Shown here one piece after another: positions 20,029 to 63,885 of a stretch of DNA of 64,000 bases (its first letter is position 1; every line of letters begins with the position of its first letter). The notes below the pieces were generated by a model. The model saw only the letters and a program-made list of their open reading frames with translations. It did not search any database and had not been told where the DNA came from. Made by a program: the position numbers and the translations under genes. Source of the stretch: Patescibacteria group bacterium UBA6017 (GTDB taxonomy: Bacteria; Patescibacteriota; Saccharimonadia; UBA4664). The stretch is from positions 187,073-251,072 of the forward strand of contig DIZX01000015.1 of NCBI GenBank assembly GCA_002429485.1. The letters are read 5' to 3'.

Positions 20029-20094
20029 GCAAACATTGTAGCCCACCGACACCTGGGTAGCCAAACCGCCGAAGTTCTGCTAACTTTTTATACT

Positions 20095-28876: not shown

Positions 28877-28967
28877 ACGGGCATTGTATCTCAACTCCGT
28901 GCAAATGCGACCTTTTCGAGCGTGGTTGCACCAGCTGGACAATAAATCCACTAGACAAGCAAAATAT

Positions 28968-47451: not shown

Positions 47452-47928
47452 CTACAGCAACCCTCCGGGTACCAGGAAGTTCAAGATCGCCACCATCATC
47501 AAGTAGAGTACCAGCGCGGTAACGGCGTTCATTATTCGTCCCTTAGCGTTCTTCACGTTCGACGGATCGCCGCCCGAAACAATGTACTGAACACCCGCGA
47601 TCACCAGGACCAATATAATTATCCCGCCAATCAGGCTGTTTACCAGAAAAAGTATCTGCTTAAGGTAAAAAATGATTGCTCCGCCGGTCTTGGGATCGTT
47701 CGGAACCTCCACCTGACCCGACTTGCATGATCCCTGAGATCCACCGGCTGCGATCGGCAGCGCTAAACAGACCGGACCGCCGCCCCCGGTAATATCGGCC
47801 GGCGCCTTTGCTGCGGCGCCCACTTCAGCTGGCACCACATACGCTTGGCTACCCAAAACAACAACGTCCAGTGGCGCCGATACAACAGCCGCAAACGCAA
47901 CAAACAGGAATAAACTTAAGCGCTTCAT
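47452..47928 (-). CDS. T4SS pilin-like protein, paralog 5 (first gene of the pilin operon)
   Basis: Signal peptide, Cys pair (PVCLAL...GSCKSG); core VQYIVSGGDPSNVKNAKGRIMNAVTALVLYLMMVAIL. Confidence 0.55.
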   Translation of the reverse strand: MKRLSLFLFVAFAAVVSAPLDVVVLGSQAYVVPAEVGAAAKAPADITGGGGPVCLALPIAAGGSQGSCKSGQVEVPNDPKTGGAIIFYLKQILFLVNSLIGGIIILVLVIAGVQYIVSGGDPSNVKNAKGRIMNAVTALVLYLMMVAILNFLVPGGLL

Positions 47929-47935
47929 TAGGTGT

Positions 47936-47965
47936 ATTGTACCGACCCGCCCACCTAAAAGTCAA
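47936..47965 (-). promoter_or_regulatory. promoter for the pilin operon: TTGACT-18 nt-TACAAT with the -10 ending 7 nt before the ATG (probably leaderless)
   Basis: On the minus strand: TTGACT tttaggtgggcgggtcgg TACAAT acaccta ATG. Confidence 0.5.
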
Positions 47966-48002
47966 AAACTCTAATGCTTTGAACGCGGAGGTTATTTAAG
48001 AT

Positions 48003-48037
48003 TTGACTTCATTTATATAGCATAAGCGTTGTACAAT
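48003..48037 (+). promoter_or_regulatory. promoter for the T4SS structural operon: extended -10 TGTACAAT ending 7 nt before ATG 48045 (probably leaderless); weak -35
   Basis: TTGACT at 48003-48008 (23-nt spacer, so a weak -35) and TGTACAAT at 48030-48037. The 13-nt motif TAGCATAAGCGTT at 48018-48030 is also present at 46431-46443. Confidence 0.45.
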
Positions 48038-48044
48038 ATGACAC

Positions 48045-51000
48045 ATGAGACGTAGGTGGTTCGGAATATTCCTCATGGCGTGGGCGTTTATGTCCCCACT
48101 GTTTGCGTTCGCCCCGGCGGCAGAAGCCGCCCCGCCCTCCGAGTGCCACTGGACTGACCCAAACCACATCGTTTGTGATGGCACCAGCACCTACACCAAG
48201 ACTGCATTCCAAAATACAACCATCTACCGATCGGATATAAGCCACTTTATTGCAAATATCAACGCCGCCCATACGGCTGGAACATTCACCGAAATCACCC
48301 AATCGCCCCAGACGGCCAATACATACCCGATGGCGCTTGGCAGCCCGGCTAATGCCACAACTACACCCAAAAATCCGCCGTCTACCTCCCTTGCCTGCTC
48401 CTGGACAGACAAAACACTCATTCAGTGCGGCACCGAACAATTTAAATTTATTCATATAGCAGCGCAAAACCAAGATCGCTGGGTCAATAGTGCCACCAGC
48501 TTCATTGCCAACGTATCGGCCAACAAGACCGCCGCCACCCATTACACCATGCTTCAATCGGGATTGCCCGGACCTACCAATCCGGTCACCCTTAGCAATC
48601 CGGCCAACGCCACCAAAAACCCAGCTGCTCCTGGCGGAGGTCCAACCGCCGATAAACCCGTCAACTGTGAAGCAGGCGCCTTCACTTGGCTCGTCTGCGG
48701 CAGCATCAAAATCCTCGTCGGTGTCGTCGACACCATTACTAACGATGTTATCGTTCCGTTCCTCAAAGAACCCCCGCTCGACAAAAACCAAAAAGAATTT
48801 GCCCCAGTCTATGCCATCTGGTCAGCATTTCGAAACGTTGCCAGCGTCTTCTTCATCCTCGTCTTCTTCCTGGTGATTATCGGCACCGCCCTCGGCTTCG
48901 ACAACTACACCATTAAGAAGGTTCTCCCGCACCTGGTAGCAGGCGCCATTTTGATGCCGTTCTCGTGGTATCTATGTGCCTTTTTGGTCGATATCGGCAA
49001 TGTGCTTGGCCAAGGCATCGTCGTACTCATGACTAATATTATTATTATCGGCACGCCCAAAGTAGATCTCACCTCGAATTTCACCACCTTATTCCTCGGT
49101 GTCGGCGGGGGAGTAGGCACTTTCGCATTAATCGGTGCCGCAACCATCCTGGGGTTCTGCGCCATAATCTCGCTGCTAATTGCCTTCGCCGGCGTATTTC
49201 TGACCCTGGTATTCCGCAAAATATTAATTCTGTTTCTGATCATCATCAGCCCGTTTGCCCTCCTGGCCTGGGTCCTGCCCAACACCGAGAAGTGGTTCAA
49301 AGAATGGTGGCAAAACTTCCTCAAGCTCGTTATGCTCTATCCCATCATCATGATGCTGATCGAGGTTGGCCGTCTGTTCTCCGCCACTGCCACCGCCGCC
49401 TCCCCCGGCGCCATCTGTGCCGCCGGCGATACGGCCTGTCAGGCGACAGCCTGGGTAGCACCATTCTTCGCCATCGCCGGACTCACCGTCCCGCTCTTTA
49501 TCATCCCGTTTGCCTTCAAGTTTGCCGGCAAGGGTCTCGCGGCGGGCAGCGGCGCCATCAACAAGCTTGGCGGCGGCATCGACAAGAAATACGGAAAGGA
49601 CAGCGCCCTCGCCAAGGACCTCGCCGAAGGGCGCCAGCGCAAGAATGTGGCAGCTGCCAAGATTGCCGAAAGCAACGCCAAGAGCGCTCATGGCCTTCAC
49701 AAGACCGCCCTGAACCGCAAAGCCGCCATGAACTGGCGCCGAGCCGGGTTGGCGGGCAGTACCGGCAGCGCCAAGCTGAGGCGCGGTGAGGCCGTCGGCA
49801 AAGCTGATAAAGAATTAAGTACGATTGATGCCGATAACCGTATGTCCAAAGAAGCAGATCCGGAAGACTTCCGGCAGCGCCGCCTCTCCACCACGCAGAG
49901 CATCCTCGACGAGAAGGCTGCCAACCGCGGTGCCCGCCAAGGTGTATTAGAAGGTTACAATGGCGCGGGCGCTCCAGGCGCACGAGACAAGCAGCACCAG
50001 GCTCGCATCAACTCCCGCGACAATTATCTGGCTGCAGCCGGAAAAGCCAAGGGCGAGATCGAAGACGACGCTCTCAACGAACGCGAACGAGTCAATCGCA
50101 CCGGCAATTACGTCAGCCCATCCATGAAAATGGCCGCCGCTCACGATACAGCCGCCCTTTCGGCCTCGGATGCTCGCGGAACAGCCAGAGGCATCGTTGA
50201 GGGCGGGGCTGAGGCTGAGCGTATCATTCAAAGTCAAACCGGCTTAAACGCCGCTGATGCCCGCGATCTTCGGCTCCGTAATGTAGCTAAAGCCAAAAGC
50301 AACATCCAAAGCGCTTCGGCAGTCACGACCCAACAAACTGCTAACACCAATGTAACCGCCAATGCCGAGCTCGATCGCCAGCAGATCGCAGCCGCCGGCG
50401 GCCATATGTCCCCCCAGCAAGCCCGCAGTCTACGTATGCAGAACCTATCCGCCGCCACTCACTCTCAAGAGCGTGAAAAGATTGGTGCCGCCGAAGGTCA
50501 GATCGATGCCCGAAATGCCATCACCGCCTCCGCCGGCCAGGAAAACATGGGCCGCCTGGTAACTGGTGAGCGGATGGCCGCCCGCGAGCAGCTCTCCAGC
50601 GCCCGGACCTTGCGCGAAGCCCGCGCCGACTTCCAAGCCACTCCCGAAGGCTATATGTCGACCGCTGACTCACTCAAGGCCAGCCGTTTGGAAGCCAACA
50701 AGCGTATAGGTGCCAGCATAGGCGCCCAAAAACAAGAGATCGCCCAGGAGCAGGAAGATATCGCCAAAGCCCTGCGCGACGGTAACCCTGCCCCCAGACT
50801 GGCCGACCACGTAATCGCCGGCACCGAAGCCGCCAAATCTAAGACCGCTCAAGACTCCGCCCAGCGCCTGGCCGCCGTCAACGCCGTCCGTACCGGCACC
50901 GCTGCCAGCACCAGACAGCACACCGACGCCGCCGTCTATACGGCCGAGCGCAGCACCGCCATCGCCGACGCCGCCGTCAAAGCCACCGCCAGCGCCGTTA

Positions 51001-52586
51001 ACGCCCAAATCGCCGCCGTTGCCGGGGAGAAGGGCTTATCTACAGCCGCCGCCGCCCAAGCCGTCCGCACCGATAATCTCAAAGTCGCTGCGCGCGCCAA
51101 AGAAATAACTACGAACGCAGAATTTGCTACTACTCCCGCAAAAGACAGAGGCGTCATCAAGGCGTATGAAGCCGCCATCGAACAGGCCCGAGAAGCCCCC
51201 CTCCGAAAAGCCAAGGTAGCAGCCTTTGAGCGTGCCGATGAAAATGCCCGCACCGACACCTATGAACAGTCCTATCAAATCGCAAAAGCCGCCAAAATGA
51301 CGGACAAGGCAGGCAAGATCGTGAAAGACGCCGCAGGCAACGAGGTTCTCAAGTTCACCGAAGGCGAAGCCCGAGACTATGCCGCAAAAGCCAGAGATAC
51401 GCTCGGCGCCGAAAGGGGCCAAAAAGCTGGTCGCGAGGCAGCCGACAAAATCACAGCCGTAGGCAAGTTGAATTCCGCAGATGCCGAACGAGCCGTGATC
51501 GCATCCTCCGCAACAGCCGCAGAAGAATTAGCCATGCGCACAGAAGCCTCCTCGCAAGCCCAAACTGCCGCCCTCAATCAGGCCGTTGAATCGTCTGCCA
51601 CAAAACTCGATGCTAGAGAGCGCCTAGCCGTCCAGACCGAAGGTTCCGTTGCAACACTAGCTGCCGAATCTGGAGCCGCCAGAGCCCGCTACGACCTTAC
51701 TCGTCCCGGACAATCGTTAAACCAATCCTATCAAGCTGCCGAAGACCACGTAGTAAAGTCCGAACGGCTAAAAATAATAGGTGATCGCGTCGAAAAAGCC
51801 GGCAATGAAGACTTTACCTTTATGGGCAAAGACGGAGTGCCACACTCCGACAGTGTCAAAAACGCCGACTTAGGCCCAGACGGCGTCAAAGCCCAGGACG
51901 ATGAAATCAGGAGGTTGCTCAAAGATGGTTACCAAGACCCCGAAAACGAAGATCGCGCCCTCGCGCTCGTAGGCAGACTGTCGTTAACGGGCAGCGGCAG
52001 AGAAAGAGTTCGCGCAATTCAACGTGACCTATTTGGAAGAACTGAAGACCAATTGATCGATCCCACCAGATTTAAGGGCCGGGCCAGTGAGCTCTGGGAG
52101 ATCGTGCAGTCAAAAAACAAATCTGATGTATCCAAGGACTTCTTCATGCCCGAACCTGCCGCCTATGACGGCTACAGCTCATCCGAGTTTGGTCGCTCTG
52201 GTTGGGGAGAAAAGAAAAATTACTTCGAATTCGCCAAAAGAGTAGACAAAGATAATATTTACGACGAATCTACTCGAAATATCCAACAAGCCCTAACCAA
52301 CGCTCAAGTTACAAAGGAACTGAATTCCGATGACTACGCTCAAATGTGGATCTATATGCAAGACCCCAAGGCCCTAACTGCTCTGGCCACACGAGACACA
52401 GACGCAGGGAAAGGCAAAACAGGCCTCGACATCGTAAAGAAGATATATGCGTCAGGTGGCGCGGCTGAAGCCGAAAAGAGATGGTTAGAAAAACAAGGCG
52501 GCGACCCAAGCAGGAATATTCTCAAACAATACGCAGATTCTGGCTTCACTGTTTTACCGCCAGTGCCACCCCCTCCGACCCCCTAG
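48045..52586 (+). CDS. VirB6/TrbL-like T4SS inner-membrane protein with an N-terminal Cys-pair repeat domain and an about 1000-aa Ala/Lys/Glu-rich C-terminal extension
   Basis: 1513 aa. It has a signal peptide; three C-x9-C motifs (CHWTDPNHIVCDG, CSWTDKTLIQCGT, CEAGAFTWLVCGS); a polytopic core of about 8 TM helices between residues 230 and 500; then a low-complexity Ala-rich helical tail. Confidence 0.7.
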   Translation: MRRRWFGIFLMAWAFMSPLFAFAPAAEAAPPSECHWTDPNHIVCDGTSTYTKTAFQNTTIYRSDISHFIANINAAHTAGTFTEITQSPQTANTYPMALGSPANATTTPKNPPSTSLACSWTDKTLIQCGTEQFKFIHIAAQNQDRWVNSATSFIANVSANKTAATHYTMLQSGLPGPTNPVTLSNPANATKNPAAPGGGPTADKPVNCEAGAFTWLVCGSIKILVGVVDTITNDVIVPFLKEPPLDKNQKEFAPVYAIWSAFRNVASVFFILVFFLVIIGTALGFDNYTIKKVLPHLVAGAILMPFSWYLCAFLVDIGNVLGQGIVVLMTNIIIIGTPKVDLTSNFTTLFLGVGGGVGTFALIGAATILGFCAIISLLIAFAGVFLTLVFRKILILFLIIISPFALLAWVLPNTEKWFKEWWQNFLKLVMLYPIIMMLIEVGRLFSATATAASPGAICAAGDTACQATAWVAPFFAIAGLTVPLFIIPFAFKFAGKGLAAGSGAINKLGGGIDKKYGKDSALAKDLAEGRQRKNVAAAKIAESNAKSAHGLHKTALNRKAAMNWRRAGLAGSTGSAKLRRGEAVGKADKELSTIDADNRMSKEADPEDFRQRRLSTTQSILDEKAANRGARQGVLEGYNGAGAPGARDKQHQARINSRDNYLAAAGKAKGEIEDDALNERERVNRTGNYVSPSMKMAAAHDTAALSASDARGTARGIVEGGAEAERIIQSQTGLNAADARDLRLRNVAKAKSNIQSASAVTTQQTANTNVTANAELDRQQIAAAGGHMSPQQARSLRMQNLSAATHSQEREKIGAAEGQIDARNAITASAGQENMGRLVTGERMAAREQLSSARTLREARADFQATPEGYMSTADSLKASRLEANKRIGASIGAQKQEIAQEQEDIAKALRDGNPAPRLADHVIAGTEAAKSKTAQDSAQRLAAVNAVRTGTAASTRQHTDAAVYTAERSTAIADAAVKATASAVNAQIAAVAGEKGLSTAAAAQAVRTDNLKVAARAKEITTNAEFATTPAKDRGVIKAYEAAIEQAREAPLRKAKVAAFERADENARTDTYEQSYQIAKAAKMTDKAGKIVKDAAGNEVLKFTEGEARDYAAKARDTLGAERGQKAGREAADKITAVGKLNSADAERAVIASSATAAEELAMRTEASSQAQTAALNQAVESSATKLDARERLAVQTEGSVATLAAESGAARARYDLTRPGQSLNQSYQAAEDHVVKSERLKIIGDRVEKAGNEDFTFMGKDGVPHSDSVKNADLGPDGVKAQDDEIRRLLKDGYQDPENEDRALALVGRLSLTGSGRERVRAIQRDLFGRTEDQLIDPTRFKGRASELWEIVQSKNKSDVSKDFFMPEPAAYDGYSSSEFGRSGWGEKKNYFEFAKRVDKDNIYDESTRNIQQALTNAQVTKELNSDDYAQMWIYMQDPKALTALATRDTDAGKGKTGLDIVKKIYASGGAAEAEKRWLEKQGGDPSRNILKQYADSGFTVLPPVPPPPTP

Positions 52587-52659
52587 CCCTCTAGCCCTCT
52601 AGCCCGCCGACCCATATTAGCGTAAGCTTAATGTGAGATAGAGGTGGAGTTCCCGAAAC

Positions 52660-53469
52660 ATGGGCCAGTATAAGGTGCCGCAAAACGTAGAGGCCGAGGA
52701 CAAGATTCTTGGCCCGTTAACTTTCAAGGAGTTTATCTACTTCTTGATGGGTTTTGGTTGGGCCGCGCTGAGCTTTGCCATCTTCCGTCAAATTCCCGTC
52801 CTCATGGTCGTCATCGGCTTTCCGCCCACCACGCTATTGCTGCTGCTGGCCTTCTACAACCGCGACGGCCAAAGCTTTGAGCAGCTCCTGGTAGCCATGG
52901 TGGGTTTCTTTGCCACCTCCCGCCGCCGCGCCTGGTCCAAAGATGACATCATCGAAACCTTCCACGTGGAGGCCACCGTCATCGCCGCCGAGGCCACCCA
53001 GCGCAATTCGGCCGAAGTCCGCGGTGAGCTCGAAAAACTCGCCAACCTCATCGATTCCCGCGGCTGGAACCACCCCCAGGAGCCCGAACCCTCACAGATC
53101 ATGCCATCTATCGCCCACACCGACCGCATCGTGCCCACGCCGCCGCCAACCCCCGGTGAAGTACCCACCGATATCCTCGACCTGCAGCAAAGTCCGCTGG
53201 CCCAAAACCTTGCCGAGCTACTACGCGCGGCAGCCGAAGACGTTCGCGAAGAGGCTATCCAGCAAATGGCCGGCAAGCCAGTCCGGCCCGTAAAAGGCGC
53301 TCCAGCCCCCACAAGCATAAGCGGCGTGACAGCCGCGTCGCCGAACGATATACTTCAATTAGCAACGCAGAGTGATGAGTTAAGTGTGACGCAGATTGCC
53401 GCCCAGGCCACCCGCCGGGTTGCGCTGCCAAACGGACAAACCTTGGAGATTCCCGTCAATGGCAGCTAA
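52660..53469 (+). CDS. PrgI-family (VirB3-like) T4SS membrane protein
   Basis: N-terminus KVPQNVEAEDKILGPLTFKEFIYFLMGFGWAALSFAIF matches the PrgI-family pattern (VPKDI..YEEK..GLT.RQ), followed by two TM helices. It overlaps the next gene by 11 nt. Confidence 0.65.
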   Translation: MGQYKVPQNVEAEDKILGPLTFKEFIYFLMGFGWAALSFAIFRQIPVLMVVIGFPPTTLLLLLAFYNRDGQSFEQLLVAMVGFFATSRRRAWSKDDIIETFHVEATVIAAEATQRNSAEVRGELEKLANLIDSRGWNHPQEPEPSQIMPSIAHTDRIVPTPPPTPGEVPTDILDLQQSPLAQNLAELLRAAAEDVREEAIQQMAGKPVRPVKGAPAPTSISGVTAASPNDILQLATQSDELSVTQIAAQATRRVALPNGQTLEIPVNGS

Positions 53470-54193
53470 CGCCAATACACATTCCGGTAAAAGCGCCCAA
53501 GATACCCTCCTGATCGCCGAGATCAAGGATGGCATCGTGGTCATGAAAGATGGCTCCCTCCGAGGCGTTATTCTCAGCAGCGCCATCAACTTCGACCTCA
53601 TGAGTCCCAGCGAGCAAGAGGCCGTCGAATCAGCCTATCAGGGCTTCCTCAACTCGCTGCATTTCCCCGTACAAATCTCCATTAAGAGCCAAAAAATCGA
53701 TATCACCGGCTACCTCGAGAAGCTCGATGCGCTCCGTGCTGAGCAACCCAATGAGCTCCTTGGCGTCCTGATGGACGACTACATCGCCAACATTCGCGCC
53801 CTCGTGGAAGAGGTCAATATTATGGACAAGCAGTTCTACGTGGTCATCCCGTATTTCCCCCCGTCCGCCGTTCAAAAAAGCAACAGCCTGATCGATAAGC
53901 TCAAAGGCGCCTTTGAATCCACCCCGATGATTACCGTCAGCGAGGAAGATTTCAAGAAGAACAAAACCGAGCTCTCGCAAAGAATGGCTCTGGCCGCCAA
54001 CGGCATGACCCAAATGGGCGTCCGCGCCATCTCGCTCGGCACCCAAGAGTTGGTTGACCTTTACTATTCCTGGTACAACCCCGACGTCGCCGTCAACCAA
54101 AAACTCATCGACACCTCACAGCTCGGCACGCCAGCCGTCACCAAGGGAGTCGGCTCCGCGCCGCGCGGCCCGCTACCGGGAGCACCACTGTAA
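53459..54193 (+). CDS. VirB4 N-terminal domain protein (split VirB4, part 1)
   Basis: IAEIKDGIVVMKDGSLRGVILSSAINFDLMSPSEQEAVESAYQGFLNSLHFPVQISIKSQKID is a typical VirB4/TraE N-domain. It ends at TAATG, which overlaps the next ATG. Confidence 0.7.
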   Translation: MAANANTHSGKSAQDTLLIAEIKDGIVVMKDGSLRGVILSSAINFDLMSPSEQEAVESAYQGFLNSLHFPVQISIKSQKIDITGYLEKLDALRAEQPNELLGVLMDDYIANIRALVEEVNIMDKQFYVVIPYFPPSAVQKSNSLIDKLKGAFESTPMITVSEEDFKKNKTELSQRMALAANGMTQMGVRAISLGTQELVDLYYSWYNPDVAVNQKLIDTSQLGTPAVTKGVGSAPRGPLPGAPL

Positions 54194-56064
54194 TGGGACT
54201 ATTTGGGAAAAAACCTGCTGCCACCGTCGACCAAGCTCAACTCGAACAGATGCAAAAATCGATGGAGTCTCGCGAAGCTGAGCTCATTTACCGTCAAGGT
54301 ATCGTCACCATGCGCGACCTCATCGCGCCGCCCTCAATCGAGGTGGAATCGGCCTATCTTCGCCTTGGCAAGCGCTACTGCAAGACTATCTATGTTTATG
54401 GCTACCCCCGCCAAGTTTTCACGGGCTGGTTATCGCCCATTATTAACCTCGACGAACTCGTCGATCTCTCGCTCTTTATCTACCCAGTCGAGAGCCAAGT
54501 GGTACTCACCAACCTCCGCCGCAAAATGGGCCAGCTCGAGGCCAGCTACAGTATCAACCAAGAAAAAGGCCTCGTTCGCGACCCTGGCCTAGAGGCCGCC
54601 ATTCAAGATGCCGAAGAACTCCGCGACAAGCTGCAAGTAGGGGAGGAGCGCTTCTTCCGTTTTGGACTTTACCTCACCATGTACGCTGACACGCTGGACA
54701 ACCTCAACCAAACCACGCGCAAGATTGAAGGTATCTTCGGTCAGTCACTGGTCTATACCAAACCCACCACTATGCAGATGGAACAGGGCTTCAACTCCAC
54801 CACCCCGCTCGGAACCGATCAGATGCAGATCAGCCGCAACATGAACACCGGCGCGCTCTCCACGAGCTTCCCCTTTACCTCCTCCGAACTCTCCCGCAAT
54901 GAAGGCATCCTTTATGGCCTCAACCGGCACAACAACGGCCTGGTACTCTTCGACCGGTTCAGCCTCGAAAACGCCAACATGGTGGTGTTCGCCAAGTCCG
55001 GCGCCGGTAAATCCTTCGCCATCAAGCTGGAGGCCCTGCGTAGCCTCATGATGGGCGTCGAATGCATCATTATTGACCCGGAAGACGAGTACAAGCCCCT
55101 CTGTGAGGCCGTCGGTGGAACCTACCTGCGCCTCAGCCTGGCCTCCAAGACTCGCATCAATCCCTTCGACCTTCCGCGCGTGTTCGACCAAGACGAGGCC
55201 GATAACGCTCTGCAGGCCAACATCATCTCGCTCCACGGCCTCCTGCGCCTCATGATGGGCGGCGCCACCGTCAATACCTCTACCGGCGCCACGCTGTCCT
55301 CGCCGCTTTCACCCGGCGAAGAAGCCGATCTGGATGCCGCCATCATCAACACCTACGCCCGCGCCGGCATCACCCGCGACCCGCTCACCCACAGCGCCAC
55401 CCCGCCCACCATGAACGACCTCTACAACACCCTCGCCTCCATGACCGGCACCGGCCCCGGCCTCGCCCAGCGCCTCCGCCAGTACACCACTGGCACCTTC
55501 TCTGGCATCTTCTCCGAACAATCCAACGTTGAGCTCGACAACCCCTTCCTGGTCTTCAACATCCGCGATCTCGAAGACGCCCTCCGCCCCGTCGGCATGT
55601 ACATTGTCCTCAACTACATCTGGAATAAAGTTAAATCCGACCGCCGCAAGCGCCTGCTCATTATTGACGAGGCCTGGCAGCTCATGAAGTACGACGATTC
55701 TGCCAACTTCATGTTCTCGCTCGCCAAACGCGCCCGCAAATACTACCTCGGCCTCACCACCATCTCGCAGGACGTCGAAGACTTCCTCGGCAGCAAGATG
55801 GGCCGCGCCGTGGTGGCCAACTCCTCCCTCCAGCTGCTGCTCAAGCAGGCCCCCAGCGCCACCGACATCATCGCCGAAACTTTCAAGCTCACCCAAGAAG
55901 AAAAGAACCGCCTCAGCCAATTCCCGGTGGGCGAGGGCCTATTCTTTGCCGGCCTCAACCATGTCATCATCCGCATCTTAGCGTCCGATACCGAGACCCA
56001 GCTCATATCAACTAATCCCGGCGGTACCAAAACCCCTCCGCCGACCGGAGGTGAGGCTCAATAA
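54193..56064 (+). CDS. VirB4-family T4SS ATPase (CagE/TrbE/VirB domain; split VirB4, part 2)
   Basis: Walker A VVFAKSGAGKSF, Walker B LLIIDEAWQLM, and the central motif YVYGYPRQVFTGWLSPII...DLSLFIYPV. Confidence 0.9.
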   Translation: MGLFGKKPAATVDQAQLEQMQKSMESREAELIYRQGIVTMRDLIAPPSIEVESAYLRLGKRYCKTIYVYGYPRQVFTGWLSPIINLDELVDLSLFIYPVESQVVLTNLRRKMGQLEASYSINQEKGLVRDPGLEAAIQDAEELRDKLQVGEERFFRFGLYLTMYADTLDNLNQTTRKIEGIFGQSLVYTKPTTMQMEQGFNSTTPLGTDQMQISRNMNTGALSTSFPFTSSELSRNEGILYGLNRHNNGLVLFDRFSLENANMVVFAKSGAGKSFAIKLEALRSLMMGVECIIIDPEDEYKPLCEAVGGTYLRLSLASKTRINPFDLPRVFDQDEADNALQANIISLHGLLRLMMGGATVNTSTGATLSSPLSPGEEADLDAAIINTYARAGITRDPLTHSATPPTMNDLYNTLASMTGTGPGLAQRLRQYTTGTFSGIFSEQSNVELDNPFLVFNIRDLEDALRPVGMYIVLNYIWNKVKSDRRKRLLIIDEAWQLMKYDDSANFMFSLAKRARKYYLGLTTISQDVEDFLGSKMGRAVVANSSLQLLLKQAPSATDIIAETFKLTQEEKNRLSQFPVGEGLFFAGLNHVIIRILASDTETQLISTNPGGTKTPPPTGGEAQ

Positions 56065-58547
56065 TGGCTACTGGTTTTAAATCTTACCGGACTAAACCTA
56101 CCGACGGTTCTGACGAACCTATAAGCAACAGTCCGCAGATGAATGACGACAACCTAACAAATGGTCCGATAGTCCCAGCCCAGCCCGACGGCGCCCCTCT
56201 CACCCCCCACGAGCAAGCCACCATTGATCAAATGGAGGCCGGTTTTGACACCGACAGCATCCCGGAGCCAGAGCAGCCAGCACAGTCCGGCTCCGAGCCG
56301 GCTTCTTCGGCCGGCCAACCCTCGGGCCAATCCGCAGCCAACCACGCTCCTCGCTCCGATGCCAAGGCCCAGCCCGACGCCAACCCGGAAAATACCGACA
56401 CCCCTAGCGCGGAAGATAAGAAACAAGCCGCCGAAGATGAGGCTGCCGACGAAAAAAAGTCCATGGCCAAACAAGCCTCCAAGGATACCGCCAGGCGAAC
56501 CGCCCTCTACGCCGGCGCCGAAATCGGTAAAGAGATCGTCAAAGACGCCGCCAAGGATGTTGCGCATGGAGCGGCCCAAAACGCCGCCAAACATGAAGCC
56601 AAAAAAGTCACGGGCGCCATGATCAAGGGCGCCGCTAAATCCGGTGTCAAAAAGGCCGCCAAGAAAACTCTCAAGCGGGCGATCTTCAAGTACATTTTTG
56701 GGTTTGGCATCCCCACGCTCGGCATTATCGGGATTCTCTTCTTCCTCCTCTTATTCAAGAGCGTCCACATCCGCAATATCTATATCGATTACGAATTCGC
56801 CAAATTCGACCGCGCCTTTAGCCGCCGCCTCCAAAAGGCCGCCAAAGAAGCTCAAGCCAAGGGCACGCCCACGACCGAAGTCGCCGCCGATGCCACCCCC
56901 GAGGAACAGCTCAAAGGCGCCAACAAGGATGCCATCGATCAGATCAAAAATGATCCGGCGGCGATGGAAAAAGAAGCTAAGGCCGGCACCGATTTTGAGC
57001 AAACCAAGGCCGGCGTCGGTGGCGAGACGGATCTAGAATTCGGCATTAAACGCAGCGTGGCTCCGGAGGACGAAACCGACCCCAGGAAAGCTCAAACCGC
57101 CGTGGAAACTGAAATTAAAGACGAAATCAGGGGTCCCAAAGGTACTACAGGTGATCCGGGGCCGTTGAAAAATGCCGTCGACGAAGCCAACAAGCAAGCC
57201 GACGCGGGAGCTACCCCCGAAGAGATCAGGGCCGGCGCCATTAAAAACGTCGGCAGCCTGCTGTCGGGTGTCACCGGTAAGGCCGCCGCCGCCCTTTTCA
57301 TCGCCACCATGGGCTGTATTGCCCGCGATATCTATGTCACAAGCGTCGACTTATTTTCCCAAATTAAACTCAGCGCTTTGGCTCGTACTGCCGCCTCCAT
57401 CGCCAAGCACGCCGACTGCCATCGCGAAGTCGACAACCATTGCGGCCTCGCCAGTGAAGCGGCCGTTTCCCAGATGTTCGATTCCGCCACCGAATCATTC
57501 ATCAATACTGCCGGCTACCAACGCGCCACCAACCAACCCGTCAGCTACGCCAAGTCCAACCGTGACCTCGATCCGGCCATGGAACCAGTAAATCATGGTA
57601 CCGGGCTCGCCGGCGAGCTTATGGGTATCATCAATAGCGTCAATAGCGTCGCCAACTTTCCCGGCCTAGGCTCGGTCTGCACCATAGTGCTAACCCCGGC
57701 CTTCCAGATCACCGCCACCATCTCCCTCGTCCTCGCCCAGGTCGCCCTGGCCATTAGTGGTGTTGCCGACTTTGGCCTCAGCGATGTTGTTCTAGCTGCC
57801 GTTACTACTGCAGCCCAAATCCTCGCCACCAAGGCGGGCACTGCCCTCGCCGTCGATGCCGTCCTTCATTATTCGGGCCTCATTTTCCGCGGCCCCTTCA
57901 CGCCCACCCAAATGGGCAACATGATGGATGCCGGCTCCAAGGTCATGAGCTCCGACGCCTGCATGCGCAGCGGCTGCCACCAGCTCACCCCCGCCCAAAA
58001 CCAGCAGCTCTCCGACTCCATCCACCACGACCAGGTCGAGTACGCCCAGCGCCAAGGCATAGCCTACCGCCTCTTCAGCCCCGAAAACCCCAACTCGGTC
58101 CTTGGTCTCGTCGCCGACCGTGTTCCTTCCCACGTCGGCAGCGCCGTCACCATGGTCCAAACCGCCATCATCAACAACGCCGTACCCGGCCGATGGCTCA
58201 AGATGCTTGGCCAGCTGGCCGCTGCCAGCCCCACCACGGCCTATGCCGCCACGGCCGAATACCAAACCTACAACCTGCCGGATTGGGGCGTCCCGGACAG
58301 CGAAGCTGACAAATACGGCGTTATCGAAAACAGCCGCTGGGTAGAGGCCAATATCGATGCCGCTACCAAGACCAAATTCGAAGACTGCTTCAATACCCCG
58401 ATGAACAAAATGCTTACCAAACCCGGACTGACTGACCTTGCCTTCTGCAACGACATTACCGAACCTATTACTCGCTACCGCATCTTCAAGCTCGATCAGC
58501 GCGCCTCCCACGCCCTTGTAGTTCTCAATAATAATCAGGCCAAATAA
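56064..58547 (+). CDS. T4SS-embedded membrane protein of unknown function (827 aa)
   Basis: An about 200-aa disordered Pro/Gln/Ala/Lys-rich N-terminal region, a TM helix (IFGFGIPTLGIIGILFFLLLF), then a large Cys-containing domain with further hydrophobic segments. TAATG overlap with the VirB4 gene. Confidence 0.5.
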   Translation: MATGFKSYRTKPTDGSDEPISNSPQMNDDNLTNGPIVPAQPDGAPLTPHEQATIDQMEAGFDTDSIPEPEQPAQSGSEPASSAGQPSGQSAANHAPRSDAKAQPDANPENTDTPSAEDKKQAAEDEAADEKKSMAKQASKDTARRTALYAGAEIGKEIVKDAAKDVAHGAAQNAAKHEAKKVTGAMIKGAAKSGVKKAAKKTLKRAIFKYIFGFGIPTLGIIGILFFLLLFKSVHIRNIYIDYEFAKFDRAFSRRLQKAAKEAQAKGTPTTEVAADATPEEQLKGANKDAIDQIKNDPAAMEKEAKAGTDFEQTKAGVGGETDLEFGIKRSVAPEDETDPRKAQTAVETEIKDEIRGPKGTTGDPGPLKNAVDEANKQADAGATPEEIRAGAIKNVGSLLSGVTGKAAAALFIATMGCIARDIYVTSVDLFSQIKLSALARTAASIAKHADCHREVDNHCGLASEAAVSQMFDSATESFINTAGYQRATNQPVSYAKSNRDLDPAMEPVNHGTGLAGELMGIINSVNSVANFPGLGSVCTIVLTPAFQITATISLVLAQVALAISGVADFGLSDVVLAAVTTAAQILATKAGTALAVDAVLHYSGLIFRGPFTPTQMGNMMDAGSKVMSSDACMRSGCHQLTPAQNQQLSDSIHHDQVEYAQRQGIAYRLFSPENPNSVLGLVADRVPSHVGSAVTMVQTAIINNAVPGRWLKMLGQLAAASPTTAYAATAEYQTYNLPDWGVPDSEADKYGVIENSRWVEANIDAATKTKFEDCFNTPMNKMLTKPGLTDLAFCNDITEPITRYRIFKLDQRASHALVVLNNNQAK

Positions 58548-58549
58548 CA

Positions 58550-59842
58550 ATGCGACGCTTACTACTCATCCTTTCCCTCGCCCTTGTTCCGTTTCAGGCG
58601 CTAGCCGTCACGCCCGCCACCAGCCATATCCTCAACTATCAATCTACCTTCTACGACCCCGCCGACACTGGCCAAACTTGCGGCAGCCCCACGAGCGGTG
58701 GCGCTCCCGCTGGCAGCGGCAACCCCAGCGGTACGCAAGTTCAACACGCTCAATCCATCATCGGTATTGCGAAAACCTTAAACATGGGCAAGCAAGGCGC
58801 TCTCATTGGGCTTATGGTTGCCCTAGCCGAATCCAGTCTTCAAAATTACGCCAATGACGGCTCATTTCAACCCAGCTATGCACCTTTAAAGGCAATTTCT
58901 GAAGCCCTTCCGCACGACGCCGTCGGCAGAGATCATGACTCCGTCGGCTTGTTTCAGCAGCGCGCGGTTGATGGCAGCTGGGGGCCAGTGAGCCCCTCCA
59001 AGGACCTGGCCGGAAACGTTAAATGGCTCATGACCCCAACCTATTCCGCCGAGGCCTTCTTTGCCATGCCGGCCGGGAAAGGTGACACCAAAGCCCTGAC
59101 GAACGTCTCTGGGTGGCAGACCATGGACCCTGCAGTCGCTGCCCAAAAAGTCCAGGCGTCAGGCGACCCTAGTGGCGGCAACTACCGACGTCAGCAGTCC
59201 GCCGCCGAAGCCCTATTAACTAAATACTATGACTCTTCGCCCGCCATAGCGCTCCCAGTACCATTGGCTAAGGGTGGCGGCGGTGGCGGTGGCGGCAACG
59301 GGGGATCGAGCGGAGGGACTGCGAACAGCTCATGCCCCGATACCTCAGCTCCTACCACCGGAGGCCCGATCTCGGGCTGCACCAACCCCATCACCGATCA
59401 TCGCTGGCAGCCCGCCCGAACAGATCAGGGCGTCGACTACGTCGAGAACGCCAACATCCCCGTCCGTGCCATCTGCGACGGCACCATAGTGGAAACCGAT
59501 GGCGGCGGCTGGCCGGGCGGATACTTTGTAATCATAAAAATGTCGGCCGGCCCTTACATAGGAAAATGCACCTTTGTTGCCGAACATCTCAGTAATGTAT
59601 TGCCCAAGGGCACAAAAGTGAAAGCCGGACAACAAATTGCCACCACCCTGCCGGGTTACCCCTGGACTGAATGGGGCTGGGCCGCCGGACCTCAGACCCC
59701 TAGCACGACGTATAATGGCGCCGCAGATGGGTCCTCTATGCCGGGAGGAAAAGCCTTTGCCCGTTTCCTCCGCCACCTCGGAGCCAAAACCCAACAAGAC
59801 CCCGGTCCTGGCCCCGAATACGCCGGCAGCAATTGTAATTAA
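58550..59842 (+). CDS. secreted two-domain cell-wall hydrolase (SLT/lysozyme-like N-domain, poly-Gly linker, M23/LytM-like C-domain); functional analogue of VirB1/PrgK/TcpG
   Basis: Signal peptide; ALAESSLQNYANDG...DHDSVGLFQQR (E-S...GLxQ transglycosylase-like); G8-NGGSSGG linker; C-domain DQGVDYV...GKCTFVAEHLSNV...KAGQQIATT (M23-like, but the canonical HxH is not obvious). Confidence 0.6.
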   Translation: MRRLLLILSLALVPFQALAVTPATSHILNYQSTFYDPADTGQTCGSPTSGGAPAGSGNPSGTQVQHAQSIIGIAKTLNMGKQGALIGLMVALAESSLQNYANDGSFQPSYAPLKAISEALPHDAVGRDHDSVGLFQQRAVDGSWGPVSPSKDLAGNVKWLMTPTYSAEAFFAMPAGKGDTKALTNVSGWQTMDPAVAAQKVQASGDPSGGNYRRQQSAAEALLTKYYDSSPAIALPVPLAKGGGGGGGGNGGSSGGTANSSCPDTSAPTTGGPISGCTNPITDHRWQPARTDQGVDYVENANIPVRAICDGTIVETDGGGWPGGYFVIIKMSAGPYIGKCTFVAEHLSNVLPKGTKVKAGQQIATTLPGYPWTEWGWAAGPQTPSTTYNGAADGSSMPGGKAFARFLRHLGAKTQQDPGPGPEYAGSNCN

Positions 59843-60558: not shown

Positions 60559-60834
60559 CTACCCTCGCAGCTGTCCGATACTGATTGCCAGCCGCTTCGG
60601 CCGCTCACCAGCCAAATTCTCTACAAGGTTTAGCAGTTCCACCTGCCGCATCCGCAGCTCTCCCGCCACCCCCGCGCTGGGCGTCTCCAGCCGCAGTGTT
60701 CCCTGGTGCAGCTGCCGGGCCCGCACCTTCTGTGGGTACCAGTCGTCCAACACCTTTTGGATCCCCACCAGCACATCCTCACGGTCCATCCCCAGCTTCG
60801 CCCTCAAGCGTGCAAAATAATCCGGCTCAAGCAT
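60559..60834 (-). CDS. DUF721 (DciA-like) protein
   Basis: About 92 aa; LVGIQKVLDDWYPQKVRARQL...LRLETPSAGVAGELRMRQVELLNLVENLAGERPKRLAISIG. It overlaps recF (ATGCTTGA). The tracked ORF extends to 60897. Confidence 0.55.
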   Translation of the reverse strand: MLEPDYFARLRAKLGMDREDVLVGIQKVLDDWYPQKVRARQLHQGTLRLETPSAGVAGELRMRQVELLNLVENLAGERPKRLAISIGQLRG

Positions 60835-61894
60835 GTGCTGCCTCCGTAGAAATAATTTTGTGAGCGGTCTTAAACTCCCGTGCGATAGCGTCAGCATCGG
60901 TCGTCGTCACCATCGTCTGATAACCTTCCAGCCGGTTGAGCAGGTACCCGCGCCGATATTTATCGAGCTCGCTAAACACATCGTCGAGCAATAGTAGGGG
61001 ACGCACCCCCGTGTGCTCCTCGGCATACCCCAGCTCCGCCAGCTTCATCGCCAGCACCAACGTGCGAGTCTCACCCCGTGAGGCCACCTTGGTAATGTCA
61101 TTATTTTTAAAGTAAATCCGAAAATCTTCCCGGTGTGGCCCAATCGTGGTAAATCCCGCCCCCAAATCCCGCGTGAGATTACGCGCCAATGCCTCCAGAA
61201 ATTCATCTTCATACACCCCCTGAACGCTTGGAATATACTCAAACCCCACCTCCACCGTCTCACCTGCAATATCCCGGTAGAGCAGGGGAGTGGCCCCCGA
61301 CAGTACCCGCAGCAGCTCTTGACGCTGACGGTATATTTCCACCGCCAATTCAGCCAACTTAATGTCCCAGGTAAATATTTGCTGCCGAATCCGCTCCATG
61401 TCGAAACCGTCCAGCAATGCGTTGCGTTGCTTCAGTACCCGCCGGTATTGCTGCAAAGTCGTCAAATAAGTCCGATCCGTTTGACTCAATAAAAAGTCCA
61501 GATACCGCCGCCGGGCCTCGGGCGCGCCCGCTACCAACTCCAAGTCGGTCGGTTCAAACAGTGTCACCTGGATCTGGCCTACGTGCCCCACCAGAGTACG
61601 TTTCACCCCGTCGTGAGTAATCTTTTTTTCAGTTGTTTCGCCGGCCGCGTAGCCAATCGCATACTCCGTGACGTCGGTATGAGCCACCACCCGAAAATGA
61701 TCCTGCCCGTGCCGCACCAGATCACGGTCCTTGGCTCGAAAGCTCTTCGTCGAGGCCAGCACGTACAAACTCTCCAGTAAATTGGTCTTGCCGCTGGCAT
61801 TCGGGCCCACCACTAACGTCACATCCGGATGCAGCTCAAACTGAGCCGTGTCGTACGAGCGAAAATTTGTCAGCTCCAAGCTCTGTATCCTCAT
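60827..61894 (-). CDS. recF: DNA replication and repair protein RecF
   Basis: MRIQSLELTNFRSYD...VGPNASGKTNLLESL (Walker A) and a C-terminal signature and Walker B region. Confidence 0.95.
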   Translation of the reverse strand: MRIQSLELTNFRSYDTAQFELHPDVTLVVGPNASGKTNLLESLYVLASTKSFRAKDRDLVRHGQDHFRVVAHTDVTEYAIGYAAGETTEKKITHDGVKRTLVGHVGQIQVTLFEPTDLELVAGAPEARRRYLDFLLSQTDRTYLTTLQQYRRVLKQRNALLDGFDMERIRQQIFTWDIKLAELAVEIYRQRQELLRVLSGATPLLYRDIAGETVEVGFEYIPSVQGVYEDEFLEALARNLTRDLGAGFTTIGPHREDFRIYFKNNDITKVASRGETRTLVLAMKLAELGYAEEHTGVRPLLLLDDVFSELDKYRRGYLLNRLEGYQTMVTTTDADAIAREFKTAHKIISTEAAHA

Positions 61895-62054
61895 AGACTC
61901 ATTGTATCTGATTCAGATTTGTTTACCTCCCCAAGCATAACCTTGACAGAATTGTACATTTAAACTATTATATAACTTGAACGAGCGTGCGCCGGTACGC
62001 CATTCGTTATCTCACCCGAGATTGACAACCCAGTTCCCATTGGAGGGAAGAATC

Positions 62055-62672
62055 ATGACGCTCAGGTCGTTTTTTCGCACTCTGAAGCTTGTTGCAGCGA
62101 TCGGCGTCATCGCGACGCTAGCTGCTGCTTGTGCATCAGGTACCACCAAGTCTGTCGCGCCCTCACCGGCGCGATCAACTTCGGCTGCATCCGCCGAACC
62201 AGCTGCGTCGATTCCCAACCTCGCCCAGCTCCCGACGGATCGCGAGTGCCGCTTCATCTCCCAAGATGATGCAGCCAAGGCCCTCGGATACAACCCAGGA
62301 CTCCCGCACATCGACAAGTCTGGGGTCATCTCAGGCACCGCCAAACGGTGTGCGTTCGGGTCTCCGGCGTACTTCAACCCCAGGCCGTACCTCGACATCA
62401 GCTTCATGAAGTTCGCCTCACCGATGGTTGCCAACCTGACCCTCGGCCTGATTCGCGAAAATCTGATCGCGACCTACGTTCCCGGTACCGTCAAAGATGT
62501 CGCAATCGGAGATTCCTCCGTGTACATGCCCTTCACCGATGGTGGTACCAGCTACGTCTCCAGCCACGGCATGATCGTCATGATCCTGTACTACCGACGC
62601 GGCACTACCGCCGAAGGTAACAAGACCGTGCTCAACGACCTCGCACGAGCGGTGGTACGCCATCTCTCATAG
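62055..62672 (+). CDS. lipoprotein (DUF3558-like, Actinobacteria-type)
   Basis: GGAGGG lies 6 nt before ATG 62055. Signal peptide plus lipobox LAAAC-ASG, two conserved-looking Cys (DRECRF, AKRCAF). Clearly GC-richer than the flanking genes. The tracked ORF starts earlier at 61977. Confidence 0.6.
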   Translation: MTLRSFFRTLKLVAAIGVIATLAAACASGTTKSVAPSPARSTSAASAEPAASIPNLAQLPTDRECRFISQDDAAKALGYNPGLPHIDKSGVISGTAKRCAFGSPAYFNPRPYLDISFMKFASPMVANLTLGLIRENLIATYVPGTVKDVAIGDSSVYMPFTDGGTSYVSSHGMIVMILYYRRGTTAEGNKTVLNDLARAVVRHLS

Positions 62673-62775
62673 CTCCAACTACGCCCCCGACGGGGCCCCC
62701 ACCCATCACAAGAAAGTGAGGCCACGTCGGGGGCCTCACCATGTCAACGCAATTATTTCGAATATTTAGTGGGTT

Positions 62776-63885
62776 TTAAGTCCGCAACGGCATCACAATG
62801 TGAAGATAATCATCCGTCGCATTTTCACCGGCCGGCGATATCACGCACGGGCTCAGCTTGCCGCTGATTGCCACCGTCACCATCGGGCTCTTCACCGCCG
62901 CCAACGCGTCCGTGAGGTATCGGGCATTCAGCGAAATTTCGCCGTCCTCACCATTAACTTCACATTCGGCCGACGACTTATTGCCGCCCACCTCGGAATC
63001 ATTCGACACCACACTCACTTCGCCCTCAGATTTGATTTCCAACCGAATACTGCCGGCGCTTTCCCTGGCAAATAAACTTGCCACCTTGGTAATTCGTGCC
63101 AGCTCTGCCGTGGCAATATCGAACGATGTCTCGGCGCTCTCGGGGATAATTCTCCGGTAAGGGGGAAACTGCCCCTCGATCAATCTCGACACTACCTCGA
63201 CGTCAGCGATTCTAAACATCACCTGGTTCTCATCCACGTAAACTTCCACGTCACCCTCTGCGTCGCCTAGAAGCTTCACCAGCTCTTGCATCGTGCGAGC
63301 TGGCACGAGGACTGAAAACTCCTTAGGAGCACCCTGGGGCAGCTCTATGCGCTTCTCAGCTAAGCGGTAAGAGTCGGTTGCCACAATAAACAATGATTCA
63401 TCTTCGATATACATATACACCCCGGCCAATACCGGCCTGGCCTCGTCCGCCGATGCCGCCACCACTACCTGGGCCAGCGCATCCCGAAATATCACCGCAT
63501 CCAGTGTCAGCGCGGGGTCGCTCGTGAGTGTCGGGATCAAGGGAAACTCTTCCGCCGAGATCCCGTTGATCTTCGACTCGTAATGAGGGCTCTTGACCGT
63601 CAATACGCTATCCAGCCCATGCAACTCAATATTGCCGTGGGGGAGACTTGATACAAACTCCGCGAATAGGCGAGCAGGCACGGTCAATGATCCCTGCTCC
63701 TCCACCTTCGAACCAATCCAATAATTAATCCCGATCTCGAGATTGGTCGCCGACAATCTCAATCGATTGCCGTCAGTAGCCAATAAAACATTCGCGAGTA
63801 CCGGTAGGCTAGCTCTGGTTGACACTACCCGACCAACGCTGGCGAGAGCTCGAGAGAGATTCTCCTGGGTTAAACTGAGTCTCAA
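62776..63885 (-). CDS. dnaN: DNA polymerase III beta sliding clamp
   Basis: MRLSLTQENLSRALASVGRVVSTRASLPVLANVLLATDGNRLRLSATNLEIGI...; 369 aa. An AT-rich region lies upstream (63886-64000). Confidence 0.95.
   Translation of the reverse strand: MRLSLTQENLSRALASVGRVVSTRASLPVLANVLLATDGNRLRLSATNLEIGINYWIGSKVEEQGSLTVPARLFAEFVSSLPHGNIELHGLDSVLTVKSPHYESKINGISAEEFPLIPTLTSDPALTLDAVIFRDALAQVVVAASADEARPVLAGVYMYIEDESLFIVATDSYRLAEKRIELPQGAPKEFSVLVPARTMQELVKLLGDAEGDVEVYVDENQVMFRIADVEVVSRLIEGQFPPYRRIIPESAETSFDIATAELARITKVASLFARESAGSIRLEIKSEGEVSVVSNDSEVGGNKSSAECEVNGEDGEISLNARYLTDALAAVKSPMVTVAISGKLSPCVISPAGENATDDYLHIVMPLRT

Follow-up and report, generated by a model that had tools for sequence, protein, structure and literature searches.

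A lineage-restricted lipoprotein gene between recF and dnaN in a Candidatus Saccharimonadia genome: probable variable surface protein in a gene-turnover hotspot

The subject of this analysis is a small lipoprotein gene lying between recF and dnaN in a stretch of 64,000 nucleotides (nt; the window) from Patescibacteria group bacterium UBA6017 (assembly GCA_002429485.1, contig DIZX01000015.1, positions 187,073 to 251,072). Both recF and dnaN are on the minus strand, and an 881-bp gap (61895-62775) separates them. The sole convincing open reading frame (ORF) of this gap is on the plus strand, as an earlier note, made from the sequence of the window by eye, had described. The features of the locus are the following.

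60827-61894, minus strand: recF, 355 amino acids (aa), TIGR00611 match at 2e-95
61943-61971, plus strand: sigma-70-type promoter-like site, TTGACA-17 nt-TATTAT, matching the consensus at 11 of 12 positions; the ATG lies about 84 nt downstream
61972-62054, plus strand: 5' leader with three small predicted hairpins, one of them at 61985-62000
62042-62047, plus strand: Shine-Dalgarno sequence GGAGGG, separated from the ATG by 7 nt
62055-62672, plus strand: lipoprotein gene, 205 aa plus stop codon
62055-62132, plus strand: signal peptide with lipobox L-A-A-A-C (Cys26 = TGT at 62130-62132)
62133-62234, plus strand: linker rich in Ala, Ser, Pro and Thr (residues 27 to about 60), with predicted disorder
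62235-62669, plus strand: globular alpha/beta domain, residues 61-205, from an AlphaFold2 (AF2) model
62683-62734, no strand assigned: GC-rich hairpin between the convergent lipoprotein gene and dnaN, outer stem GCCCCCGACG / CGTCGGGGGC
62715-62740, minus strand: stem of 9 pairs (6 G-C) resembling an intrinsic terminator, with the T-rich tail TTCTTGTGAT; just downstream of dnaN
62776-63885, minus strand: dnaN (DNA polymerase III beta clamp), 369 aa, TIGR00663 match at 1e-86

The ORF has the properties of a real gene: 10 homologues with ratios of non-synonymous to synonymous substitution (dN/dS) below 1, a confidently modelled domain, and a Shine-Dalgarno sequence and start codon that are kept. 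A spurious ORF was therefore dropped from consideration. So was an alternative TTG start at 61977, which would give 231 aa; the homologues all begin at an ATG preceded by a Shine-Dalgarno sequence (MT...). The exact gene is also present on public metagenome contigs that run on into dnaA, rnpA, yidC and jag, which places the locus in the chromosomal origin region. Neither oriC nor DnaA boxes were found in the dnaN-recF gap itself. GC skew is negative over the whole 64 kb, and dnaA, dnaN and recF all lie on the minus strand, which fits a leftward-moving fork from an origin beyond 64000. With such a fork, the lipoprotein gene, and every opposite-strand insert found in the same slot in relatives, would be transcribed head-on to replication.

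DnaN shares 98% identity with its counterpart in the Candidatus Saccharimonadia metagenome-assembled genome (MAG) JBBRSS010000005, and a graded series of Saccharimonadia/Patescibacteria relatives follows. Judged by these matches, the genome is a MAG of Candidatus Saccharimonadia (Candidate Phyla Radiation (CPR)/Patescibacteria) and not actinobacterial. The earlier note had called the lipoprotein gene "Actinobacteria-type" and markedly richer in GC than its surroundings. The ORF has a GC content of 59.3% against a mean of 56.6% (standard deviation 2.8) in the 45 other long ORFs of the window (z=+0.99), and 18% of these match or exceed it. GC content at third codon positions (GC3) is 0.70 against 0.66 (z=+0.55), and the leave-one-out cross-entropy of synonymous codons gives z=+0.38. 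The composition of the gene is native; with z-scores of +0.4 to +1.0 for GC, GC3 and codon use, a compositional anomaly was dropped. Of the actinobacterial label, only a remote likeness to the DUF3558 family and to certain protein folds survives; the genome is that of a Saccharimonadia MAG, and no actinobacterial protein was found by sequence search.

To place the gene in an evolutionary context, dnaN loci were taken from 38 genomes, and recF and the intervening gap could be located in 24 of these. The contents of the slot differ as follows.

Gap of 1-114 bp, no ORF: 13 of 24 loci
Gap of about 270-285 bp, no real ORF: 2 of 24 loci
PadR-family regulator on the opposite strand, with an extra ORF in two: 6 of 24 loci
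Unrelated 180-aa lipoprotein: 1 of 24 loci (L010)
561-aa surface protein plus a sortase: 1 of 24 loci (L017)
Homologue of the window lipoprotein, on the opposite strand: 1 of 24 loci (L004)

Almost universal contiguity of dnaN and recF, as previously assumed, is thus an overstatement, since the gap reaches 270 bp or more in 11 of the 24 related loci. The PadR-family protein is a winged-helix regulator of about 100-130 aa and occurs in L006, L007 (7961-8269, minus strand), L008, L011, L014 and L031. Beyond the 24 loci, the metagenome contig L050 has the same recF-lipoprotein arrangement as the window, with a RecF that is 92% identical, and in L044 the lipoprotein gene adjoins a 3' fragment of dnaN. 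Many more distant Patescibacteria in the sample have no recF within 6 kb of dnaN.

In a neighbour-joining tree of DnaN and RecF, the basal Saccharimonadia all have ORF-less gaps of 1-114 bp, and cargo in the slot is confined to a derived clade, in which the window and L004 together are sister to a PadR-bearing genome. Because the basal lineages are contiguous and only the derived clade carries cargo, the tree supports the lipoprotein gene as an addition to an ancestrally contiguous dnaN-recF pair; by the same reasoning from gene content, the slot is a gene-turnover hotspot of this derived Saccharimonadia clade. It is a clear case of such a hotspot, located in a reduced CPR genome within the origin-proximal dnaA-dnaN-recF cluster.

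The age of the addition can be judged from the nearest relatives. Between L004 and the window, DnaN is 98% and RecF 94% identical at the amino acid level. The DNA of L004 and L050 is homologous to that of the window in recF and onwards across the promoter, leader and signal peptide, as far as 62080 (L004) or 62149 (L050); homology restarts at 62640 (L004) or 62678 (L050) and continues via the hairpin into dnaN. The proteins of the flanking genes in these two loci are 92-98% identical to those of the window, with synonymous divergence (dS) of about 0.9-1.3. The slot orthologues of the lipoprotein, in turn, are only 30-35% identical, with dN/dS of about 0.45-0.5 as against 0.01-0.05 for dnaN and recF. 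Since a homologue and homologous flanks share the slot in genomes whose flanking dS is about 1, the addition is, on these distances, not recent. Given flanks near synonymous saturation and a lipoprotein dN/dS of about 0.45-0.5, relaxed or diversifying divergence in place would be enough to account for slot orthologues with 30-35% identity. Cassette swapping as the cause of the 30% slot identity was set aside as unneeded, with a flank dS of about 1 and a dN/dS of about 0.5.

These data bear directly on the explanation given by the earlier note, namely that foreign, GC-rich DNA of actinobacterial type had recently been inserted into the origin-proximal dnaN-recF operon. The opposite orientation of the gene, its own promoter and terminator, the adjacency of dnaN and recF in outgroup genomes and the resemblance to DUF3558 would all suit such an event. 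GC, GC3 and codon use lie within one standard deviation of the window genes, however; the slot gene and its non-coding flanks (promoter, 5' untranslated region (5'UTR) and hairpin) are common to genomes with a dnaN/recF dS of about 1; and no close donor sequence appears in any collection searched. Nor does the window contain an integrase, transposase, target duplication, direct-repeat scar or tRNA beside the gene. A recent foreign insertion is therefore largely refuted and keeps only a very slight probability. What remains of the proposed insertion is an addition to a pair that was ancestrally contiguous (with basal gaps of 1-114 bp), neither recent nor foreign by composition. The features of a recently transferred islet are likewise missing: composition is native, the slot gene recurs in L004 and L050, and no border repeats are conserved. 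Comparison of the slot across relatives, which the earlier note had proposed, cuts both ways, in that the native composition speaks against its view and yet only the nearest relatives, not all, carry the gene. The picture of foreign DNA breaking a core operon is an ordinary one, and in this case mostly wrong.

An imperfect direct repeat, 61976-62003 / 62640-62663 (about 83% identity, gapped), links the leader with the 3' end of the ORF, and its second copy (62640-62663) falls where the DNA homology to L004 restarts. Since neither L004 nor L050 conserves it, it was dropped as an insertion scar and is probably due to chance.

The encoded protein has three parts. Its N-terminus, MTLRSFFRTLKLVAAIGVIATLAAAC, fits by inspection the pattern of a lipoprotein signal with Cys26 as the lipobox cysteine. 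A PS51257-type rule calls for no D/E/R/K at -10 to -5, then [LIVMFWSTAG]x2-[LIVMFYSTAGCQ]-[AGS]-C, with the cysteine at residue 15-35 and K or R within the first 7 residues; the inspected translation agrees with it (R4, R8; h-region LVAAIGVIATLAAA; L22-A23-A24-A25-C26), so that the LAAAC lipobox was correctly read at first sight. No family member departs from A25 or C26, and the canonical L-T-A-C is found in most relatives. The linker that follows is the least alignable segment of the family, and the AF2 model has a predicted local distance difference test score (pLDDT) below 50 for residues 1-56. Built from an alignment of 10 sequences, the model is confident for residues 57-205; over residues 61-205, pLDDT is mostly 83-97, and 71 for residues 91-110. 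Two cysteines of this domain, Cys65 (62247-62249) and Cys99 (62349-62351), are invariant in all 10 family members.

DUF3558 (PF12079) is the only Pfam family matched by the window protein (E=1.1e-6, 29.1 bits, which is sub-threshold) and the sole match of all 10 family members, with E-values from 1e-6 to a best of 2.4e-9; several relatives are listed with an unmarked precomputed DUF3558 hit. Together with the invariant cysteine pair, this upholds the DUF3558-like two-cysteine pattern that had been pointed out before. Membership of DUF3558 is not established on these scores, and the protein is best described as a divergent lipoprotein of DUF3558-like type. A sequence profile search of the PDB returned nothing at E<=1. 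With model residues 57-205 as query, the best PDB matches in Foldseek are Dip2269 of Corynebacterium diphtheriae (3v7b) and, from mycobacteria, the soluble domain of TiME (7cu8/7cu9) and the extracellular sensor domain of PknH (4esq), with E-values of 7.5e-4 to 1.8e-3, probability 1.00, identities of 6-14% and template-modelling scores (TM-scores) of 0.39-0.58; lower matches include PsbP, Mog1 and DcrB-type folds.

The sensor domain of PknH is stabilised by disulfides and has a ligand cleft. The window protein resembles it, TiME and Dip2269 in having a predicted extracytoplasmic alpha/beta domain, and those proteins, too, come from monoderm-type bacteria. Unlike PknH, it has no kinase or transmembrane module, but a predicted lipid anchor instead.

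DUF3558 is an uncharacterised domain found throughout the Actinomycetes, and its genes are enriched in the SigM/ESX-4 regulon of Mycobacterium abscessus (PMC13491425). The DUF3558 lipoproteins of Mycobacteriales and other actinomycetes share with the window protein a size of about 180-210 aa and an N-terminal lipoprotein signal, and both are uncharacterised. They differ in their hosts, the window genome and the slot-bearing genomes being Saccharimonadia rather than actinomycetes; and in contrast to the SigM/ESX-4-linked genes of M. abscessus, no type VII secretion genes were seen near the window gene.

The family is tiny. A phmmer search of 1.84 billion representatives gave 7 family proteins, and word-indexed profile searches of 5.8 billion clusters added 3 further members, hence 10 in all; neither collection yielded more even at E<=10, nor any actinobacterial relative. 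Plasmid, phage and viral collections contained no relatives, and an origin from these sources was dropped. A metagenome scan with a sub-alignment recovered only one known contig and a fragment of the same contig, and the family is not present in the other Saccharimonadia loci examined. All 10 members have the lipobox, a low-complexity Ala/Pro/Ser/Thr linker, Cys65 and Cys99, and a conserved C-terminal helix. Pairwise dN/dS among homologues is 0.26-0.55. The interest of the family lies in this combination: it is small, fast-evolving and mosaic, and its only detectable kin are envelope proteins of actinomycetes, the hosts of cultivated Saccharibacteria.

That kinship raises the possibility of an ancient horizontal uptake of a DUF3558-type lipoprotein by a Saccharimonadia ancestor from an actinomycete host with mycolic acids, followed by adaptation and diversification. 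Such an event would concern only the origin of the gene and is compatible with its being a resident one now. All 10 members match DUF3558 and no other Pfam family, a family at home throughout the Actinomycetes (PMC13491425); Corynebacterium and Mycobacterium supply all three of the best fold matches in the PDB; those Saccharibacteria that have been cultivated live as epibionts on Actinobacteria (PMC12102498); and the family is missing from the other Saccharimonadia loci mentioned above. In addition, one non-slot copy lies beside a resolvase that is 80-83% identical to plasmid recombinases of Mycobacterium. On the other hand, no actinobacterial protein emerged from the 1.84 billion representatives or 5.8 billion clusters at E<=10, so that any transfer would be too old to trace; the resolvase is equally near (79% nt identity) to plasmids of Variovorax and Citricoccus; the PDB is biased towards Mycobacterium; and the fold class also takes in PsbP, Mog1 and DcrB of other phyla. 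Ancient uptake thus deserves to be kept in mind, although on balance it is unlikely.

The leader and the outer stem of the hairpin are far better conserved than the coding sequence. The promoter-like element at 61943-61971, a putative promoter, also occurs in L004 and L050, and its -10 part in L051 and L048, as seen in the alignment. A promoter scan of 61895-62054 gave no minus-strand promoter-like site. The recF ATG has no obvious Shine-Dalgarno sequence within 15 nt, and recF, split from dnaN by the insert, has no clear promoter of its own. The leader sequence is kept across five loci in differing genomic contexts, and the motif shared by the family loci reads ...CCTCACCCGAGGTTGACAACCC...AGGAGGGAAGAATCATG, with AGGAGGGAAGAATCATG at the Shine-Dalgarno sequence kept in most of them. 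The GGAGGG ribosome-binding site noticed earlier is thus confirmed. In the last predicted hairpin of the leader, UCCC pairs with part of the Shine-Dalgarno sequence (GGGA), which could mean translational control; covariation occurs in only 2 of 21 pairs, so the leader structure is weakly supported. Neither the leader nor the hairpin downstream of the gene has an Rfam match at E<=1, and a riboswitch or other known RNA was dropped.

The GC-rich hairpin after the gene, likewise pointed out before, is genuine. It is more stable than shuffled sequences on both strands, with a minimum free energy of -38.1 kcal/mol (z=-3.4) for the plus and -43.2 kcal/mol (z=-2.1) for the minus strand. Its outer stem is identical across 6 of the 7 family loci and shows no covariation. 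Because the lipoprotein gene and dnaN converge on it, the hairpin is taken, from its position, to be a probable two-way transcription terminator.

A further peculiarity of the family is its modular make-up. P0008 is 81-88% identical to P0005 and P0009 in the signal peptide and linker, as against 32-34% in the mature domain. Conversely, the slot copy of L004 (P0006) is 80% identical to P0010 in the mature domain and 32% in the signal peptide; compared with P0007, its signal peptide is 70% and its mature domain 36% identical. L049 and L045 share DNA homology only as far as the linker. In these alignments the family is demonstrably mosaic, with signal-peptide/linker modules and mature modules recombined among its members.

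Family members also occur at other sites. Between the slot copy of L050 and a non-slot copy in L045-47/L053, four independent assemblies, identity is 90% (aa) and 92% (nt), with an ORF dS of 0.19; homology between the two types covers exactly the ORF, 54 bp upstream and 36 bp downstream. Non-slot copies adjoin fragments of ISL3 transposases, an IS1595 transposase or a Tn3-type resolvase, and the GC3 of these mobility genes is 0.77-0.88, compared to 0.60-0.72 for the lipoprotein genes. In L045 (2128-2805, minus strand), L046, L047, L053 and L043 (1380-1808), the copies are flanked by broken ISL3 fragments (Zn-ribbon, helix-turn-helix; GC3 0.84-0.88); among plasmids, these fragments come closest to those of Rhodococcus and Mycobacterium, with 66-68% nt identity. 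Genes for a DUF6247 protein and a SHOCT-domain protein lie near these ISL3-flanked copies. In L048 (1-2309), two family copies in tandem come after an IS1595 transposase, and a remnant of the 3' end of dnaN lies between the two. In L044 (1785-1976), a 52-aa C-terminal fragment of dnaN directly follows the cassette, and the next approximately 210 bp are devoid of dnaN homology. Either slot copies were duplicated elsewhere together with a piece of dnaN in L044 and L048, or these 2-kb contigs are mis-assembled. In L051 (553-1173, minus strand), a serine recombinase (resolvase; GC3 0.86) adjoins the family member P0010. It is 80-83% identical (aa) to plasmid recombinases of Mycobacterium avium, M. 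intracellulare and M. paragordonae, and also 79% identical (nt) to Variovorax and Citricoccus plasmids; being equally like the latter, it is a promiscuous mobile gene that points to no particular taxon. An actinobacterial nature of the non-slot contigs, which would imply recent inter-phylum transfer, does not follow from these matches, the resolvase being promiscuous.

Collectively, these short contigs suggest that the lipoprotein unit moves occasionally. A stronger version of this idea would make 5'UTR, ORF and hairpin an actively mobile cassette, with the hairpin serving as recombination site or with movement depending on insertion sequences (IS), and with the dnaN-recF slot as one landing site among several. 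The sharply bounded homology between L050 and L045-47/L053, the mobility genes beside the non-slot copies, the dnaN remnants in L044 and L048 and an outer stem that is invariant despite 60-70% divergence of the ORF are all in keeping with such a cassette. Against this, the copies in the window, L004 and L050 have no recombinase or IS beside them; inspection of the hairpin reveals no integron-type core site GTTRRRY; the placement of the hairpin between convergent genes is explained by termination; the contigs with dnaN remnants are about 2 kb long and possibly mis-assembled at a shared repeat; and plasmid, phage and viral collections hold no relatives. Active mobility is accordingly thought improbable. 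An integron cassette, whose attC site would have the core sites RYYYAAC ... GTTRRRY, in particular finds no counterpart here, as GTTRRRY is missing from the flanks of hairpin 62683-62734 as well, and the scanned window ORFs include no integrase.

Other bacteria, too, have genes between dnaN and recF, for example yaaA/rlbA in Bacillus subtilis and gnd in Streptomyces and some mycobacteria. As in those cases, an unrelated gene resides within the dnaA-dnaN-recF-gyrB origin cluster without disrupting the cluster. Whereas yaaA/rlbA and gnd are co-oriented with their neighbours and conserved over large groups, the cargo of the Saccharimonadia slot runs in the opposite direction and changes from one close relative to the next.

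A second parallel is offered by the Vlp and Vsa proteins of Mycoplasma, variable surface lipoproteins in which the 5'UTR and signal peptide are conserved while the mature regions diverge. The window family likewise combines a conserved leader, Shine-Dalgarno sequence and signal peptide with a divergent mature domain and recombined modules, and L048 has two of its members in tandem. In contrast to Vlp and Vsa, variation in the window family is seen between genomes, not within one. The locus contains no invertible promoter, bracketing inverted repeats or repeat tract that could act as a phase-variation switch, and there is no recombinase in 57-64 kb.

Taken together, this is probably, with somewhat better than even confidence, a resident, lineage-restricted gene for a variable lipoprotein of the cell surface, situated in a turnover hotspot of a soil-type Candidatus Saccharimonadia genome. 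Transcription would start from its own near-consensus promoter, head-on to dnaN, and would stop at the hairpin that would also end dnaN transcripts. Because of the signal peptide and lipobox, the precursor would be expected to be exported, lipidated at Cys26 and tethered outside the cytoplasmic membrane of a monoderm-type cell. A disordered linker of about 30 residues would then hold out the 145-residue alpha/beta domain, and this predicted domain probably binds an envelope or extracellular ligand. More speculatively, the ligand may belong to a bacterial host cell; this is suggested by the facts that cultivated Saccharibacteria live on Actinobacteria and that the only kin of the domain are actinomycete envelope proteins. 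If the protein did mediate host recognition, it would provide a handle on host specificity in uncultured soil Saccharibacteria, although this, too, is speculative.

Several points weigh against this interpretation of the gene as a resident variable surface lipoprotein. The neighbour-joining tree has no support values. The DUF3558 score of 29.1 bits is below the gathering threshold of 34.1 bits, with only model positions 2-101 of 173 aligned. Most family members are on taxonomically unassigned contigs of 1-6 kb. Recombination is seen for the family and not for the window copy, and in-place divergence alone could explain the 30% identity. Finally, neither Lgt nor LspA is found among window ORFs of 150 aa or more, but 64 kb is a small part of the genome and uninformative in this respect.

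A more elaborate scenario would unite several of these threads: a DUF3558/PknH-sensor family, acquired by a soil Saccharimonadia lineage from mycolic-acid actinomycete hosts and diversified by modular recombination and IS-linked movement, might serve as a variable factor for recognition or evasion at the host envelope, with the slot beside the origin-proximal T4SS as its preferred expression site. In its entirety this is a doubtful proposition.

Finally, the neighbourhood of the locus has to be considered, since genes for a type IV secretion system (T4SS) are located at 47452-59842, beside recF and a DciA-like gene. Besides an 827-aa membrane protein, this region and the DciA-like gene next to it comprise the following.

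47452-47928, minus strand: T4SS pilin
48045-52586: 1513-aa protein, no Pfam match
52660-53469: PrgI-like gene
54193-56064: VirB4-like ATPase
58550-59842: M23 peptidase
60559-60897, minus strand: DciA-like (DUF721) gene, next after recF (PF05258, E=4.5e-4, under the family cut-off); annotated as 91 aa in the public contig

An origin-proximal location of the T4SS has been reported for Patescibacteria (PMC12102498), and the window agrees with this. The lipoprotein could in principle be an accessory of the neighbouring T4SS, for example an adhesin or a fast-evolving VirB7-like lipoprotein: the cluster ends only about 2 kb from its gene, and such clusters are typically close to the origin in this group (PMC12102498). 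Yet recF and the DciA-like gene lie in between and the lipoprotein gene is transcribed independently; relatives such as L009, in which nothing occupies the slot, keep the same T4SS neighbours (in L009, its M23 and 224-aa genes); and elsewhere the family copies have no T4SS genes beside them. A role in the T4SS is consequently regarded as highly unlikely.

The other genes of the window are housekeeping ones, including rpoD, dnaG, groEL, a Mur ligase, FemAB, tsaD and valS. Two genes encode FemAB-family peptidoglycan-bridge transferases (23557-24597 and 27899-28951), and two adjoining paralogues encode phosphoglucomutase/phosphomannomutase proteins (17133-18671 and 18676-20064). An ORF of 217 aa at 41152-41805 has a weak match to PT-TG (pre-toxin TG; E=2.7e-4, under the cut-off) and could be a fragment of a polymorphic toxin.

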